NCBI GenBank assembly: GCA_031265235.1
Contig: JAISCX010000029.1
Span: 19,137-83,136, forward strand
Length of the DNA stretch: 64,000 nucleotides
Direction of reading: 5' to 3'
From: Rickettsiales bacterium
GTDB lineage: Bacteria > Pseudomonadota > Alphaproteobacteria > Rs-D84
The position numbers and the translations under genes are program-made. Every line of letters starts with the position of its first letter. Within the stretch, counting starts at the first letter, position 1. The notes under the pieces were generated by a model that was not told where the DNA came from, did not search any database, and saw only the letters and a list, made by a program, of their open reading frames with translations. Shown here one piece after another: positions 11,889 to 30,598 of this stretch.

Positions 11889-11921
11889 AAAATCGCCGCA
11901 ACCGCGGCGATTCTTTTTGTA
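11889..11921 (+). terminator. rho-independent terminator after corA
   Basis: AATCGCCGC-AACC-GCGGCGATT followed by CTTTTTG. Confidence 0.6.
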
Positions 11922-12026
11922 AATCAATTAGAGCGTGCCAGATGCGCCGATTAAGGCGGCGGGAGTGTATTGAACATACACGACCAAAGCTTTAATCGGT
12001 GCAGATGGTGCGTTATAATTGATTTA
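11920..12026. repeat. 107-bp imperfect palindromic element (copy X) forming the 3' end of the downstream cysteine-rich gene
   Basis: Perfect 11-bp terminal inverted repeats TAAATCAATTA / TAATTGATTTA. Central hairpin GTGTAT-TGAAC-ATACAC at the exact midpoint. Internal CAGATGCGCC boxes. The minus-strand TAA stop of the 12024..14627 gene lies inside the terminal repeat. Confidence 0.8.
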
Positions 12027-14627
12027 CATCGGGATGTCTTTGCAACTTTCGTCAGGCTTTTCTTCGGTGCATTCCATTCCGCGGCTGTCCCAAAGCCCCA
12101 AGAATCCGCGGCTGCCCTTGGTCTTGCAGTTTTTGCGAATGACCAATGTGCAGTAATGACAGTTTCGGTCTTTGCGGTTGAATATGGACCACATTTCTTT
12201 CGTGCCGCCTTCGAATTCAACCTTGTGATGATCGGATGACAACATTCCGATTGCCTTGACCGATGCATCCGCAATCATGCCCGCCGGATTTAGCGTCAAG
12301 ATCGCGCCCGCCGCGCCCAGCGCCGTACTCGTCGCGCCACCATCACTGCCGCCGGCAGCAGCACCGCTTTTTGTTTCCATTTTCGCACCGCCAAGTTTTT
12401 CAGACGAATGCGTTCCGCCAGCCGCGATAGACGCATTTGACACACCTGCGATTTCAAGAACTATGGCATACGGAATGCTGATCACACCTACGAAGTCGGA
12501 CGCCGCTATCCCTTGGGCGGAACCGTTGGTCGCCGGCAGCTTGTTGCACATCAAATTGGCAACGTCCGTGCTGGCGCTCTTGGTTGCTTCTGCCATCAAT
12601 TCATTGAACTTTTTATTATAATTATCCGTAGCCGCACGAATTGCGGACATCGCGATTGCCATCTTGATTTGATTCAACAGATTTGGGAATCTTCCCTTTG
12701 TTGAACCGCCGCCTTCTTTTATCTGGGACAAATCGCGACCGGTAATGCAATATTGAATCTTTGGATCTTGTTCGATCATATCGATCGCCGTATTTATCTT
12801 GCCCTGGATACTTTCCATTTCATAGCGCACATTATCTATGACGCTGGCGTATTCTGCCGGCACGCCCAAAGCGTCCACCTTTGCGATATAGTCTTGAATG
12901 TCAATCTTTCCGGGGGCAAGCGTTATCTCTTGACCGCTTGCATCCTTTACTTTGCTTTGTCCGTTGCCAACCTTTATCTGTCCGAAAGACAACATTCCGG
13001 TTATGCTGTATATTCCGCCGCGTTTTTGACTATTAAGCGACGACGTGCCGATGTTTTCGTCCGTCGCGAACTTGTCGCAGTCCGTAGTGCTGTCGCAGAT
13101 TTCCATCATTTTCGTGTTTACAATGTTCTGGCAATTTTCCAACGCCGAATTATCCACGTTCAAATAAAATCCCATCAGCATATTGTCTATATCGGACATG
13201 GAAAAATCTTTGTTTCCCTGCTTGCACACGACCAGCTTGTCCACCGGGCACATTTCATGCATATATTTATAATCCATGCCGATACAGTTCATAAAATCAG
13301 ATCCGCAGCGGTCGTCGGATGTAAAGCATTCCTTTACTTCCTCGGTGCAGCGATCCACGCGCATCGCGGCCAGCTTGTCCTTTACATATCCCCAGATTAA
13401 CGGTTCCATCCGTTCGCACGGGTCAATCTGATTCTTGCAGAAACTGCGCGCCATGTCCGGACGCGACAGGCATGAATCCATGGTGTCCACGCCCTTACCG
13501 ACGATATCGTCCTTGCACGCCTTTTGTATACAGCCGGAAATATCGGTCAGGCACGACTGGCGCATATTGGATTCAATGTTCAATTCCGCAGTCTTTAATT
13601 CCGGCGCGATATCGCGGATAAAGTCGGGCCACACCTGGTCCCTTACCGCGACGCATTGATCCAGAATACTTTCGCACATATTGCGTTTGGAATCCAACAT
13701 CTCGCGCGTGTTCGTCGAAATGCCATACTTGTCTATGTGCTCTACCTTTGTTTTCGCGGTGCTGACTGTCGCGGCCTGCATGTTTTCTGCCGCAACATAT
13801 TTCGCACAGCGCGACCAGTCTTCGCCACAGACATCCGGTCCCATCATGCATTTTTTAAAGCCAATCAAACAAGTCCCGCGGTCAAGTTTGTTCGATTCTT
13901 CAAATGACGCCAGACGCGCGTCGCGCACGTCTTTCTGGGCGCTTGCCAATTCCGCATCCGCCTTGCGCGATAATTCCTTTACCGCATTGTCAAAAGCCTT
14001 GCAGTCGTTTTTAACCTGGGTCGCGTAAAGCTGGGTCAGCATCATCTGATCTTTTTCGCAGGAATCCGGCATTTGATCAAGGCAAAGTCCGCGCGCGGCA
14101 TTGTAAAGCACAACCCCTGTCTTGCCGGCAACCGATTCCACGCTGCTCCAAATATCTTCGTTGTCGTCGTTCCAAAGGGACAACAAATCCAGCTTTTTTT
14201 GTTCCTTATTTGCCTTATTTTCTTTTTTTTCCAAACTGATCACATTGCCCTGGGCGTCGTATTGGCGATCCCCGCCAAAGACTATGTCTGCCTTTGCGCC
14301 GACCTGGATTTTTTCAACCTCTATCGTGCGCAGATTTTCGGCGTTTTTAAGCTGTGTCTCGATATCGGAAAGAACTTTTTCATACTTTACATTCTCGTCG
14401 CTGCATGCGCATGCACCGCCGGATTCATTGTCGGAAGTGCAGAACGAATCCATGCATCCGAAATAATTGTCGTAACATTCTTGGGAAAACAGTCCCGTTG
14501 GCTGGACTTTCTGGCGTATGGTCGTGCCGCTTGCGATAACGGACGTTTTCTTTGCGGTAACAGGGGCCGCATGCGCGTCAAAAATAAGCAATGAAAAAGA
14601 AATTGCGACAAATAATATTTTCTTCAT
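12024..14627 (-). CDS. secreted cysteine-rich protein, paralog family member P1 (867 aa)
   Basis: Signal peptide MKKILFVAISFSLLIFDAHA. Family motifs are ECYDNYFGCMDSFC...CACS, CLIGFKKCMMGPDVCGEDWSRC and CESILDQCVAV. A C-terminal Gly-rich hydrophobic (glycine-zipper) segment is followed by RNCHYC and a ...ESCKDIPM tail. Confidence 0.8.
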   Translation of the reverse strand: MKKILFVAISFSLLIFDAHAAPVTAKKTSVIASGTTIRQKVQPTGLFSQECYDNYFGCMDSFCTSDNESGGACACSDENVKYEKVLSDIETQLKNAENLRTIEVEKIQVGAKADIVFGGDRQYDAQGNVISLEKKENKANKEQKKLDLLSLWNDDNEDIWSSVESVAGKTGVVLYNAARGLCLDQMPDSCEKDQMMLTQLYATQVKNDCKAFDNAVKELSRKADAELASAQKDVRDARLASFEESNKLDRGTCLIGFKKCMMGPDVCGEDWSRCAKYVAAENMQAATVSTAKTKVEHIDKYGISTNTREMLDSKRNMCESILDQCVAVRDQVWPDFIRDIAPELKTAELNIESNMRQSCLTDISGCIQKACKDDIVGKGVDTMDSCLSRPDMARSFCKNQIDPCERMEPLIWGYVKDKLAAMRVDRCTEEVKECFTSDDRCGSDFMNCIGMDYKYMHEMCPVDKLVVCKQGNKDFSMSDIDNMLMGFYLNVDNSALENCQNIVNTKMMEICDSTTDCDKFATDENIGTSSLNSQKRGGIYSITGMLSFGQIKVGNGQSKVKDASGQEITLAPGKIDIQDYIAKVDALGVPAEYASVIDNVRYEMESIQGKINTAIDMIEQDPKIQYCITGRDLSQIKEGGGSTKGRFPNLLNQIKMAIAMSAIRAATDNYNKKFNELMAEATKSASTDVANLMCNKLPATNGSAQGIAASDFVGVISIPYAIVLEIAGVSNASIAAGGTHSSEKLGGAKMETKSGAAAGGSDGGATSTALGAAGAILTLNPAGMIADASVKAIGMLSSDHHKVEFEGGTKEMWSIFNRKDRNCHYCTLVIRKNCKTKGSRGFLGLWDSRGMECTEEKPDESCKDIPM

Positions 14628-14644: not shown

Positions 14645-14751
14645 AAAATCAATCAGGATGGTGTAGATGCGTGGATTCGCAGACCCGACGTGTATTGGAC
14701 ATACACGAGGGTCGGTGAATGCGCGCAGATGCGCCATTATGATTGATTTTA
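14645..14751. repeat. 107-bp imperfect palindromic element (copy Y) forming the 3' end of the second cysteine-rich gene
   Basis: Terminal inverted repeats AAAATCAATCA / TGATTGATTTT (11/11), central GTGTAT-TGGAC-ATACAC hairpin at the midpoint, TAGATGCG / CAGATGCGCC boxes. The TAA stop of the 14749..16791 gene sits in the terminal repeat. Same length as copy X and alignable with it. Confidence 0.8.
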
Positions 14752-28232: not shown

Positions 28233-28385
28233 GTGTCATTCCGGAAAATTTTTCATTCATGAAAAATTTATCCGGAACCTGGTGGGGATTGGAATCATAA
28301 TTGTTTCCGATAGCACGGCTTTATCGCCACCGACCCCACCAGATCCCGGATATTTTTGCGTTCCGCAAAAATTCCGGGATGACAC
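28233..28385. mobile_element. RPE-like palindromic repeat element, intergenic copy (A)
   Basis: 153 bp. Terminal inverted repeats GTGTCATTCCGGAAAATTTTT / AAAAATTCCGGGATGACAC. Internal palindromic sub-hairpin TTTTTCATTCATGAAAAA and paired CCGGAACCTGGTGGGG / CCCCACCAGATCCCGG arms. It abuts the prmC stop codon. Confidence 0.7.
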
Positions 28386-28387
28386 GT

Positions 28388-29341
28388 TTATTCAAACGCC
28401 AATACGCGTTCTATTCCGCCCAGATCATTGTGCGCGGATGCAAATTTCCAACTGTTCGCCGCAAAAATTTCACGCACAGCGTTACCCTGGTCCGCACCGA
28501 TTTCAAGGAATATTTGCCCGCCCGGCTTTAACAGCCGCCGCACGGATTTCGCAATAGCGCGATAAGCAGAAAGCCCGTCCGCGCCGGCATACAGCGCCAT
28601 CTTTGGATCATGCCGCGCGCCTGCGTCCACCTGCGGATCGCCCGTCGCGATGTATGGGGGGTTGGATATGATAATGTCAAATTGTGATTTGTGATTTATG
28701 ATTTGTGATTTGAAATCTTTTCTTATTATTTTTATCCTGTCATCCAATCCCAGATTCCGAACATTTCTCCGGGCGACCCGGCATGCGCGCATGGATTTAT
28801 CAATCCCGATTCCGGTCGCATTCGGGATATTCTTTATTATAGAACAAATCAAACAACCTGTGCCTGTCCCCAGGTCCAGGATGCAAGTGTCATCCCGGAA
28901 ATTTTTCGCAGAATGCGAAAAATTATCCGGGACCTGGTGGGGCTGGGAATTATAAATATTTTTTCTATCGGAAATATTTTTTAATGCCTGGTCTTGACCA
29001 GATCCCGGGTCCATCGGCGCAAATGCGCCGATGCCCCGGGATGACACATAACCCAAAACCGCTTCTACCAATATTTCGCTATCCGGGCGGGGATCCAGCG
29101 TCGCCCCACCCGTTTCGAATTCCAACCCATAAAACCATTTTTTCCCGACGATTTTTGCAACCGGAATGCCGCGCCGCAGTTTCCATGCCGCGCGCGAAAC
29201 CGAAATACGAAATACCAGATATGAAATAATGGACATATGTTTTCGTATATCGCATTTCGACAAAATCCAATCCAACACGATGCGCGCGTCATGCGCATTG
29301 CCGGATTTTGCCAAAATTTCAAACGCTTGATTTAATTTCAC
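28388..29341 (-). CDS. prmC: release-factor glutamine N5-methyltransferase PrmC (HemK) carrying a 54-codon in-frame palindromic-element insertion
   Basis: N-terminal HemK helical domain (LDPRPDSEILVE), motif I ILDLGTGTGCL, motif IV IISNPPYI. An extra 54 aa (residues about 98-151) lie between the N-domain and motif I. They are encoded by element copy B. Confidence 0.85.
   Translation of the reverse strand: MKLNQAFEILAKSGNAHDARIVLDWILSKCDIRKHMSIISYLVFRISVSRAAWKLRRGIPVAKIVGKKWFYGLEFETGGATLDPRPDSEILVEAVLGYVSSRGIGAFAPMDPGSGQDQALKNISDRKNIYNSQPHQVPDNFSHSAKNFRDDTCILDLGTGTGCLICSIIKNIPNATGIGIDKSMRACRVARRNVRNLGLDDRIKIIRKDFKSQIINHKSQFDIIISNPPYIATGDPQVDAGARHDPKMALYAGADGLSAYRAIAKSVRRLLKPGGQIFLEIGADQGNAVREIFAANSWKFASAHNDLGGIERVLAFE
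28683..28710. repeat. heptanucleotide tandem repeat (TGTGATT x4) inside prmC
   Basis: TGTGATT TGTGATT TATGATT TGTGATT encodes the reiterated HKSQI(I/T)N peptide just upstream of the NPPY motif. Confidence 0.6.
28887..29048. mobile_element. RPE-like palindromic repeat element, copy B, inserted in-frame in prmC
   Basis: 162 bp (54 codons). Terminal inverted repeats GTGTCATCCCGGAAATTTTTC / CCCGGGATGACAC, sub-hairpin TTTCGCAGAATGCGAAA, arms CCGGGACCTGGTGGGG / ACCAGATCCCGGG. Alignable block-for-block with copy A. Confidence 0.75.
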
Positions 29342-29362: not shown

Positions 29363-30598
29363 ATGAAAAAAGCAAACATTACAAATATAATCATCTGGAT
29401 TGCCATTCTGGCCGCGATCACCGTCATTGCGCTATTCGCGTTTCCCGGCACGCGAAAAATCATAAATCCGCCGCATGAAACCATTGTGGCCGTCCAATCC
29501 GGCGATACTCTGTCCAAGCTTTTGACCGCGCAGAATCTGTCCGGGGTAGAAGCGAACGCAATCGCCGCGATGCTGAAAACCGACTGCGGCGTGTCGTCGT
29601 TGCGCGCCGGCGCGGACCATCTGACATTTGTTCGTCCTTCACAGGAATCGCCTGTTGATAAAATCGTTTTTACGTCGGGCCCTTGGAAACGCGTGGAATT
29701 AAACTGCACGGATGGCAAATGGTCGGCCCAGGTCATAGAGGTTAAAAAGGACACGCATATCGCGCGCAAGTTCGGAAAAATTCCCAGCGGCGGCGTATTT
29801 TCCCAAACAGGGATAGAAGCAGGCATACCAATCGGAACCGTTTATGAAATAATCAACCTTTTGGCGTTTGAAATAGATTTCGAGCGCGACATCCAGCCAG
29901 GCCAGGAATTCGTGGTTTTATACGAAGAAAACCTGGTGGATGGGCGTGTGATTGACGGCGGCCGCGTGATTTACGTATCCTTTGACACCCATCTTGACCG
30001 CCGCGGGAAACTGGACATGTATCGGTTTGAAAAATCGGACGGAAAATTCGGATTCTATGACTTTGACGGCAAGGGCGCGATAAAATCGCTGAAACGCACG
30101 CCGATCGACGGGGCGTCCGTTTCCAGCAAATTCAATATGAACCGCAAGCATCCGGTGCTGGGCTTTACCCGCGCGCACAAGGGCGTTGACTTTCGCGCCG
30201 CCACAGGAACCAGGATTCCGGCCGCCGGCGCCGGCAAGGTCGTGGCGCGCGGATACAATTCGGGCCATGGGAATTTTATAAAGCTGCGCCATGCCAACGG
30301 GTTCGAAACCCTGTATGCGCATATGTCGCGGTTCCAATCGGGCGTAAATGTCGGAACATCGGTGTCCCAGGGCCAGATTGTCGGATACGTCGGCTCGACC
30401 GGGTTGTCCACCGGACCGCACCTGCATTACGAAATCATAAAGAACGGCGTGCATGTGAATCCGATGACGGTGACGTTTCCGCGCATAGACGACTTAAACA
30501 AAGCGCAGAAAGAACAATTCATGGCTGTGCGCGACAAGATAGACAAGACGAACGACATTTTGCGCGCATTCCCAAATCTTTCCGTGCCGCTATCTTAA
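29363..30598 (+). CDS. M23-family peptidoglycan endopeptidase with an N-terminal OapA/LysM-like region
   Basis: HKGVDF...G.....AGAGKVV...GNFIKLRHANGFETLYAHMS...GSTGLSTGPHLHYEI is the M23 HxxxD / HxH signature. N-terminal TM/signal segment. Confidence 0.85.
   Translation: MKKANITNIIIWIAILAAITVIALFAFPGTRKIINPPHETIVAVQSGDTLSKLLTAQNLSGVEANAIAAMLKTDCGVSSLRAGADHLTFVRPSQESPVDKIVFTSGPWKRVELNCTDGKWSAQVIEVKKDTHIARKFGKIPSGGVFSQTGIEAGIPIGTVYEIINLLAFEIDFERDIQPGQEFVVLYEENLVDGRVIDGGRVIYVSFDTHLDRRGKLDMYRFEKSDGKFGFYDFDGKGAIKSLKRTPIDGASVSSKFNMNRKHPVLGFTRAHKGVDFRAATGTRIPAAGAGKVVARGYNSGHGNFIKLRHANGFETLYAHMSRFQSGVNVGTSVSQGQIVGYVGSTGLSTGPHLHYEIIKNGVHVNPMTVTFPRIDDLNKAQKEQFMAVRDKIDKTNDILRAFPNLSVPLS

Follow-up and report, generated by a model that had tools for sequence, protein, structure and literature searches.

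An RPE-4-like palindromic repeat read in frame within a linker loop of prmC in an uncultured Rickettsiales bacterium

The window analyzed here is a 64,000-nucleotide stretch of contig JAISCX010000029.1 (assembly GCA_031265235.1, positions 19,137 to 83,136), from a genome recorded as "MAG: Rickettsiales bacterium" (MAG, metagenome-assembled genome) with a G+C content of 48.9%, which is neither Rickettsia nor Wolbachia. It carries prmC, the gene for the release-factor N5-glutamine methyltransferase, with a gene for an M23 peptidase (29363 to 30598) as its divergent neighbor. An earlier note on this DNA had described the prmC frame as intact with all motifs, and this was confirmed: the open reading frame encodes 317 amino acids, and its product scored 214.1 bits against TIGR03534, the NCBIfam PrmC equivalog (cut-off, 199.1 bits), in two matched stretches with an insert between them. 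DPRPDSE, ILDLGTGTG, and NPPY are all kept. The insert is encoded by a palindromic element (copy A) that resembles the Rickettsia palindromic elements (RPEs), and a second copy (copy B) lies beyond the end of the gene. The features are given below in coordinates of the window.

28388 to 29341, minus strand: prmC, intact open reading frame of 317 amino acids, which hosts the insert
28886 to 29047, minus strand: 54 in-frame codons (162 nt) supplied by the element, PrmC residues 99 to 152 by translation
28887 to 29047, no strand assigned: element copy A, a 161-bp inverted pair of TGTC-tagged hairpin modules (a dimer of repetitive extragenic palindromic [REP] sequences, RPE-4-like), with a cloverleaf fold and a match to the family architecture pattern
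28887 to 28898, plus strand: left terminal inverted repeat, GTGTCATCCCGG, 12 nt, 100% complementary to the right repeat
29036 to 29047, plus strand: right terminal inverted repeat, CCGGGATGACAC, perfect partner of the left repeat
28887 to 28937, plus strand: left module of copy A, with TGTC tag, ATCCCGG stem, 28-nt inner hairpin, CCGGGAC, and CTGG tail (covariance model R1, 30.0 bits; E value, 0.0036)
28938 to 28997, no strand assigned: AT-rich variable core (spacer) of copy A, with a weak hairpin of its own (28945 to 28961 with 28972 to 28988)
28998 to 29047, minus strand: right module of copy A, with TGTC, ATCCCGGG, inner hairpin, CCCGGGAT, C, and TGG (R1, 22.5 bits; E value, 0.065)
28233 to 28385, no strand assigned: element copy B, 153 bp, intergenic, identified by R1 hits and alignment to copy A

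The earlier note had placed a 162-bp element at 28887 to 29048. The in-frame gain of 162 nt (54 codons) stands, and the position was off by one base, with the insert at 28886 to 29047 and the palindrome proper spanning 161 bp from 28887. The 13-bp terminal inverted repeats claimed there were reduced to 12 perfect base pairs, as the first bases outside them are A and A and remain unpaired. The internal sub-hairpin and paired arms were both recovered: the inner hairpin of the left module is a perfect 11-bp stem (28900 to 28910 with 28914 to 28924), and the arms GGACCTGG and CCAGATCC pair at 92% over 12 nt (28927 to 28938 with 28997 to 29008). A right-side hairpin of 17 nt is 82% paired (29005 to 29021 with 29024 to 29040), and the central stem is formed by CCGGGACCTGGT and ACCAGATCCCGG. 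As single-stranded DNA, copy A folds into a cloverleaf of −52.3 kcal/mol, compared with −23.0 ± 3.5 kcal/mol for dinucleotide shuffles (z = −8.4), none of which (0/200) folded as well. Its length slightly exceeds the quoted RPE range of 100 to 150 bp. Two of its six reading frames are open, and translation of the minus strand gives the insert peptide (VSSRG...NFRDDT), VSSRGIGAFAPMDPGSGQDQALKNISDRKNIYNSQPHQVPDNFSHSAKNFRDDT. No Rfam family was matched by the element in the window, by 16 other loci, or by Rickettsia DNA.

The insert lies where related PrmC proteins have a short linker, as alignment confirmed. Between the EAVL helix and ILDLGTGTG, the window PrmC has 57 amino acids, where 101 of 114 homologues have 6 to 16 (mode, 10). 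Against Escherichia coli PrmC (2B3T), residues 54 to 97 and 153 to 313 align, with residues 98 to 152 in place of the 7-residue loop 105 to 111. This loop connects the methyltransferase domain's first helix with strand β1 and lies at the N-terminal end of β1, which in class I methyltransferases is the end away from the GxGxG S-adenosylmethionine (SAM) loop. An AlphaFold model built on the 114-sequence alignment had a mean predicted local distance difference test (pLDDT) score of 87.3, with confident flanks (helix 86 to 101 and strand 153 to 157) and values below 50 at residues 120 to 148 of the insert. PrmC/HemK structures were the top matches in a structure search with this model, 2b3t_A being first (E value, 3.2e−21; TM score, 0.81 on the target). 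The novel surface loop proposed by the earlier note was upheld as to position, the encoded segment being predicted to form a solvent-exposed loop of PrmC; the 54-residue excursion is, however, predicted to be disordered rather than a folded module. The closest PrmC proteins, 55 to 58% identical, come from uncultured Alphaproteobacteria or Rickettsiales MAGs, and the best 120 homologues are no more than 58% identical and mostly 255 to 270 amino acids long.

Copy B begins 2 bp past the prmC stop codon and is ∼70% identical to copy A (112/161). The inner hairpins of the two copies differ, and both are self-complementary. No terminator-like site was found at copy B, and no copies other than A and B were found within the 64-kb window. 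An exhaustive phmmer search with the 54-residue peptide against 1.84 billion cluster representatives returned one other protein, P0121 (E value, 2e−11; 64% identity), a DciA/DUF721 protein of 160 amino acids that carries the element peptide in frame and in the same reading frame (VSSR...FRDDT). The C-terminal 15 residues of its insert are identical to those of the PrmC insert. When the insert was cut out of P0121, a contiguous DciA domain resulted (profile positions 6 to 88 of 89) and the score rose from 37.4 to 45.3 bits. This copy is known as a protein sequence only. Its accession, MDR1207600.1, lies near that of the window PrmC cluster, MDR1207421.1, both being labeled "MAG: Rickettsiales bacterium" and located on contigs of 122 kb and 108 kb, respectively; by accession numbering, the DciA copy appears to come from the same MAG as the window prmC. 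The genome thus appears to hold at least three copies, two of them in frame in unrelated housekeeping genes. The earlier note would have given up its reading had PrmC orthologues shared the 54 residues or had the element been single; among the cluster representatives the sole match was DciA, and copy B and the DciA copy are further members.

The element belongs to a larger family. A pattern scan of one genome per species for two terminal repeats 110 to 140 nt apart found the termini of copy A in other genomes, at no fewer than 116 loci; of the matches listed, most come from Alphaproteobacteria (Phenylobacterium, Methylocella, Hyphomicrobium, Parvibaculum, Rhizomicrobium, and others). The RPE-like family that had been proposed for this lineage exists, with further copies, and is not special to the lineage, being spread across the Alphaproteobacteria. 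A common architecture with four CCGG was shared by 99 of 119 extracted elements and both window copies: terminal repeat, short hairpin, CCGGGAnCC, variable core, GGnTCCCGG, short hairpin, terminal repeat. The core measured 36 to 94 nt among the 25 family members that were parsed first and is ∼60 nt in both window copies. The short inner hairpins comprised ∼80 distinct sequences, with stems of at least 5 bp in 71% and 54% versus 3 to 5% after shuffling. The covariance model R1, built from the end module of other alphaproteobacterial copies, with those of the window and of Rickettsia excluded, detected four modules in the window (31.2, 30.0, 24.9, and 22.5 bits) and nothing else; those of copy B lie at 28233 to 28282 (plus strand, 24.9 bits) and 28339 to 28385 (minus strand, 31.2 bits). 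All four start with G-TGTC-AT(C/T)CCGG. For the subfamily of the window, a metagenome pattern scan gave four short loci only, the window's own contig not being among them.

In high-GC free-living Alphaproteobacteria none of the 119 copies was truly in frame, and the family looks intergenic there. The 19 longest read-through frames in high-GC genomes showed codon-position G+C of the wrong frame on at least one side and were rejected as genes. Because no true in-frame copy was found in these genomes, read-through of the element appears to be a trait of the window's lineage and Rickettsia, not of the whole family.

Some features of the family copies are recorded separately. In the flanks of 118 copies (L001 to L116), C-rich stretches occupy positions −8 to −4 and G-rich ones +4 to +7, and the two sides are often complementary in a manner specific to each copy. 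This gives a weak and variable extension of the inverted repeat, rich in C to the left and in G to the right; either the elements reach beyond their conserved 12-bp ends or they tend to land inside other palindromes. At four loci (L048, L089, L060, and L092), exact alphaproteobacterial termini were present on contigs binned as Cloacimonadota, Saccharibacteria, and Gammaproteobacteria, which could reflect mis-binning or a broader host range. At L120 (14245 to 14316 and upstream), a copy of the window's subfamily lies directly 5′ of the lpxB start and the contig stops inside the copy; the lpxB gene of L120 itself has an apparent in-frame G+C-rich palindrome, NPTPRPCGGGGSRFCGPGGGLNKSKIQ.

RPE-4 was reportedly described by Ogata et al. 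in 2000 and 2002 and corresponds to NCBIfam model TIGR03777. An RPE-like peptide (VSSRGLTTGS...LDPVVKPRDDT) scored 53.3 bits against TIGR03777 ("RPE4 domain") and served as a positive control; a protein search with it led to real Rickettsia "RPE4 domain" proteins, and their DNA was compared with the window copies. The R. bellii RPE-4 DNA reads GTGTCATCCCGTGG-CTTGA-CCACGGGATCCAG ... CTGGATCCCGTGG-TCAAG-CCACGGGATGACAC, the right end also being given as GGGATGACAC. In R. bellii and REIP, the RPE-4 DNA agrees with the window copies in termini and module order, and R1 scored the R. bellii RPE-4 at 30.2 bits, compared with 22.5 to 31.2 bits for the window modules. The RPE-like interpretation put forward from the window alone is borne out by this agreement. 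The termini are identical over 11 nt (GTGTCATCCCG), and both elements are ordered as tag, stem, loop, stem, CCAG tail, and AT-rich core, followed by the mirror image. They have in common the end peptides VSSRG... and ...RDDT, detection by the independent model R1, an occurrence both intergenic and in frame in unrelated housekeeping genes, and the ATGAC end motif recorded for RPE-4, -6, and -7 by Matsutani et al. in 2013, who also reported that orthologues may hold different RPE groups at one site (PMC3767692). Intermediates exist, as a 37%-GC MAG (L003 and L080) carries GTGTCATCCCGGG-CTTGA-CCCGGGATCCAG.

Several differences were also evident. The stem is CCCGG/CCGGG in the window element and CCCGTGG/CCACGGG in RPE-4, and the 5-nt loop of RPE-4 (CTTGA) is replaced by an inner hairpin of 24 to 28 nt; the window unit is therefore longer (153 to 161 bp, compared with ∼85 to 105 bp for the RPE-4 copies examined) and folds as a cloverleaf. 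The window peptide misses the RPE4 hidden Markov model, and the window host, at 49% G+C, is not Rickettsia. No NCBIfam model was matched by the open frames of copies A and B at an E value of ≤10, and searches of plasmids with the RPE-4 DNA and peptide gave no Rickettsia match. RPEs have so far been taken as a feature of Rickettsia (plus Wolbachia) (PMC1779305, PMC10969869, PMC2229807), with a terminal repeat of 12 bp (PMC2229807, Table 1). By the general definition of an RPE, the window element has palindromy and terminal repeats, intergenic and intragenic copies, and in-frame insertion in PrmC and DciA. To judge by these sequences, its likeness to the Rickettsia elements is more than an analogy.

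The end modules also connect the element with repeats known outside Rickettsia. CGTC-tagged REPs, as defined by Di Nocera et al. in 2013, combine a CGTC/TGTC tag, an AT-starting stem, and a CCA tail, and occur mostly as inverted dimers in every alphaproteobacterial order, and no dedicated transposase was found for them; one of them, CGTC-4, mostly dimeric and sometimes intragenic, was equated with RPE-4 (PMC3733652). The window modules likewise have an unpaired (C/T)GTC tag, the family definition admitting TGTC and CCTC beside CGTC, as well as an AT-starting stem and a CCA-like tail, and they too are arranged as inverted dimers, the core of ∼60 nt comparing with spacers of 20 to 100 bp. Both are predominantly alphaproteobacterial, and intragenic copies of CGTC REPs have been reported (PMC3733652). 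Known CGTC families differ in having a stem of 8 to 9 bp and a loop of 4 to 5 nt, whereas the window stem is 7 bp and encloses a long inner hairpin; the window tail is CTGG and not CCA, although many relatives in other genera have CCA.

A second connection is with the NTS and Ssn-related motif (SRM) hairpins, beside which SsnA, small GIY-YIG nucleases, bind and cut single-stranded DNA (PMC11893778, 2025). The motif typically lies on either side of the nuclease genes, Rickettsia and Wolbachia are among the SRM-rich taxa, and NTS modulate the integration of transforming DNA in Neisseria (PMC11893778). Set against the NTS consensus, CGTC-AT..CCC...GGG..AT-C-YRG, the window modules agree in outline. 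Two of the four fit it fully, with the tail C-TGG, these being the right modules of copies A and B (...CCGGGAT-C-TGG), whereas the left modules carry C for the last paired T. The window loop is much longer, and NTS are described as intergenic transformation-modulating repeats rather than in-frame inserts. The window element is a member of the (C/T)GTC-tagged REP/SRM superfamily found across the Alphaproteobacteria (PMC3733652; PMC11893778) and is most aptly viewed as a CGTC-REP/SRM dimer of RPE-4-like type with an expanded loop, REPIN-like, with tags facing outward around a variable spacer.

Like REPINs (Bertels and Rainey 2011, PMC3116915), the element consists of two inverted REP hairpins and a spacer, is non-autonomous, and can fold into one long structure; REPINs, in contrast, have GTAG-type REPs and an HUH tyrosine transposase, and CGTC-type repeats are not tied to RAYT genes (PMC3733652). 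[quoted passage not shown] MITEs differ in having TA or other target duplications and ends derived from insertion sequences, neither of which was found for the window family. Identity with the Caulobacter repeat CIR, outlined in PMC2229807 as ∼110 bp with no terminal inverted repeat and GANTC in the loop, was rejected: GANTC is absent from copy A and occurs once in copy B, and both have terminal repeats.

With respect to mobility, end pairs 300 to 4,000 bp apart look, by coordinates only, like neighboring elements. All four GIY-YIG genes found in 865 kb of loci (L027, L039, L081, and L096) lie 12 to 60 bp from a module, and seven of eight GIY-YIG genes sampled on plasmids and chromids (L127 to L133; a sample not chosen for repeats) lie between inverted, tagged hairpins of the host's own type. 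The sampled genes are homologous to the Neisseria locus, and their layout agrees with the published NTS-ssnA-NTS arrangement; GIY-YIG genes flanked by tagged hairpins are therefore not new, having been published as the Ssn family (PMC11893778). On plasmid AZO_p3 of Azospirillum lipoferum 4B (L127), a ∼530-bp unit made up of a REP dimer, a GIY-YIG gene, and a REP dimer lies between sufB and sufC. This unit is absent from A. ramasamyi and Azospirillum sp. B510 (L135 and L136), the flanks being ∼96 to 97% identical over the matched sufB-sufC region, and is a presence/absence polymorphism of the whole unit. The published NTS/SRM-SsnA pairs suggest, by analogy, a way in which the family may have spread, to which we give somewhat less than an even chance: a cognate GIY-YIG nuclease of the Ssn family (cd10448 type) would recognize the hairpin in single-stranded DNA and cut just upstream of the GTC tag. 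Mobilization by Ssn is a hypothesis in PMC11893778 also.

Taken together, the 161-bp sequence is very probably a non-autonomous palindromic repeat, kin to RPE-4, that inserted in frame into a loop of prmC. The kind of selfish DNA is known; the lineage and the host gene are new, and no new kind of system is involved. A copy would have landed at the DNA level in the prmC loop between the first helix of the methyltransferase domain and strand β1. It may have survived there because its 162 nt keep the frame, the frame used is stop-free, and the loop, opposite the SAM-binding GxGxG end, could tolerate ∼54 residues; selection would have purged insertions unless they were in frame, stop-free, and within permissive loops. 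The element would then be translated as a disordered excursion tolerated by PrmC. The structure and family of the element, its in-frame place in a loop, its other copies (that in DciA included), and its kinship with RPE-4 are shown by the comparisons above, whereas we infer its arrival by insertion rather than origin in place, its way of moving, and, from the sequence, that the extra residues are translated and neutral; PrmC with the insert most likely stays functional.

Several results weigh against this interpretation. No target-site duplication was found, direct repeats of at least 3 bp beside the terminal repeats being no more frequent than by chance (120 copies), and neither a longer element nor a transposase partner with the family ends was found in the window or in 865 kb of loci. 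No GIY-YIG/Ssn gene was detected in the 64-kb window by tblastn with three GIY-YIG queries. The insert peptide matched no NCBIfam model, RPE4 included, at an E value of ≤10. Three copies only are documented for the window's genome. In PrmC, three non-element linker residues are left (GY and C), fewer than in any homologue, so the insertion was not a simple addition. No empty site was present among the best 120 PrmC homologues, the nearest being 55 to 58% identical, and the insertion event and its exact boundaries are therefore deduced rather than observed.

Among other explanations, the one that survives best is that the element has been retained for a role of its DNA or RNA, either as an Ssn-type target modulating recombination or transformation or as a hairpin affecting prmC mRNA stability or transcription. 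Its terminal repeats remain perfect, and the inner hairpins, although not alike in sequence between copies A and B, pair in both, even within coding DNA; pairing is kept over ∼80 hairpin sequence variants. In addition, copy B, 2 bp past the prmC stop codon, is in the usual place of a REP, and REPs are thought to act in transcripts (PMC3733652); NTS have an effect on integration of transforming DNA in Neisseria (PMC11893778). A recent copy of a palindromic mobile element would, however, be equally palindromic, and with no Rfam match to the element, no terminator-like site at copy B, and no ssn gene in the window, such a role is unlikely, although it has to be taken seriously.

Recruitment of the 54 residues as a useful PrmC module, for instance an interaction surface, has less in its favor. 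The frame is open and the gene intact, the same frame is used in DciA with an identical C-terminal stretch of 15 residues, and other PrmC orthologues have long inserts in the same loop. Those inserts are unrelated in sequence, so no conserved peptide has been selected, and the window insert is predicted to be disordered (pLDDT below 50) and recurs in non-coding DNA and in an unrelated protein. In Rickettsia guanylate kinase, an RPE was neutral or slightly harmful, according to the account of Abergel et al. (2006) given in PMC2229807. A recruited module is thus quite improbable.

It is more doubtful still that prmC was recently inactivated, or the contig mis-assembled at the repeat, and the frame left open by luck. 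Copy A has two open frames out of six, so that an in-frame insertion free of stops would be no great coincidence. The NCBI and JGI records, both of 108,359 bp, probably provide no independent confirmation of each other, and the related contig L120 ends within such an element. Both halves of PrmC nevertheless keep all motifs and score over the equivalog cut-off, the model is confident on both sides of the insert and resembles PrmC there, and DciA and the prmC orthologues of other samples show the same behavior. That the segment is an old loop peculiar to PrmC of this lineage, evolved in place and palindromic by accident, for which the variable length of many homologues at this position could be cited, can be practically discounted, being contradicted by copies with like ends and like order 500 bp away (intergenic) and in DciA, by ends that recur at more than 100 loci in other genera as well as in Rickettsia RPE-4, and by a fold (z = −8.4) that is not incidental.

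A palindrome in the linker loop is not confined to this prmC. Three orthologues, all with a divergent M23-peptidase neighbor, carry other inserts at the same loop.

L121, 3322 to 3519: prmC insert of 198 bp, −78 kcal/mol, z = −14, with outer CGTC-tagged hairpins of a different sequence type
L124, 2598 to 2738: prmC insert of 141 bp, z = −8.5
L123, 997 to 1137: prmC insert with a weaker fold, z = −3.4

The inserts of L121 and L124 start 2 to 5 codons past the end of the AVL helix and stop 1 to 3 codons ahead of ILDLG, leaving only 3 to 6 native linker residues, and the loop inserts of the orthologues are cloverleaf palindromes unrelated in sequence. The loop may be a hot spot, its elements may have displaced one another, or a permissive site may have been struck more than once, the same dilemma as that posed by the RPE-4, -6, and -7 sites in orthologues (PMC3767692). 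That the prmC linker loop is a fixed intragenic landing site where tagged-hairpin families replace each other is a tentative proposal that we hold to be improbable. If it were true, insertion would be targeted, for instance to a hairpin already present there or to DNA exposed as a single strand, instead of being random and filtered by selection, and the palindromy kept in coding DNA would reflect ongoing processing by a cognate Ssn-type nuclease. That different palindromes recur in one prmC loop is the observation that most deserves to be followed.

The element provides a checkable case of protein-coding selfish DNA outside Rickettsia, in two essential-type genes (those for PrmC and DciA) of apparently one uncultured genome. 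It links three literatures, on RPE-4, on CGTC REPs, and on Ssn-related motifs, that concern what looks like one hairpin module. Where RPEs come from and how they move has been unsettled since 2000, and a lineage with long inner hairpins, together with orthologues that hold different elements at one site, could help in asking whether insertion is targeted and whether Ssn is involved. For annotation, the lesson is that a long "lineage-specific loop" of a conserved enzyme in such a MAG can consist of repeat DNA.

Other length variation and palindromes were noted in the clade and in the window. In the PrmC proteins of the clade, the N-terminal helical domain is a second insert hot spot (up to 56 residues; mode, 16), and the stretch before FD.I.SNPPY is a third (up to 49 residues; mode, 9). 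Within the window prmC, positions 28681 to 28715 hold a 7-bp tandem repeat (TTGTGAT-like, ∼5 units) that encodes KSQIINHKSQ before NPPY, at one of the length-variable spots of PrmC in the clade. An unrelated palindromic family of ∼110 bp is present at 11918 to 12028 and 14645 to 14750 (AAAATCAATCA...GTGTATTG.ACATACAC...TGATTGATTTT), with one copy at each end of an 867-amino-acid open reading frame (12024 to 14627, minus strand); one copy overlaps the last codons of this frame, and the rest is intergenic.

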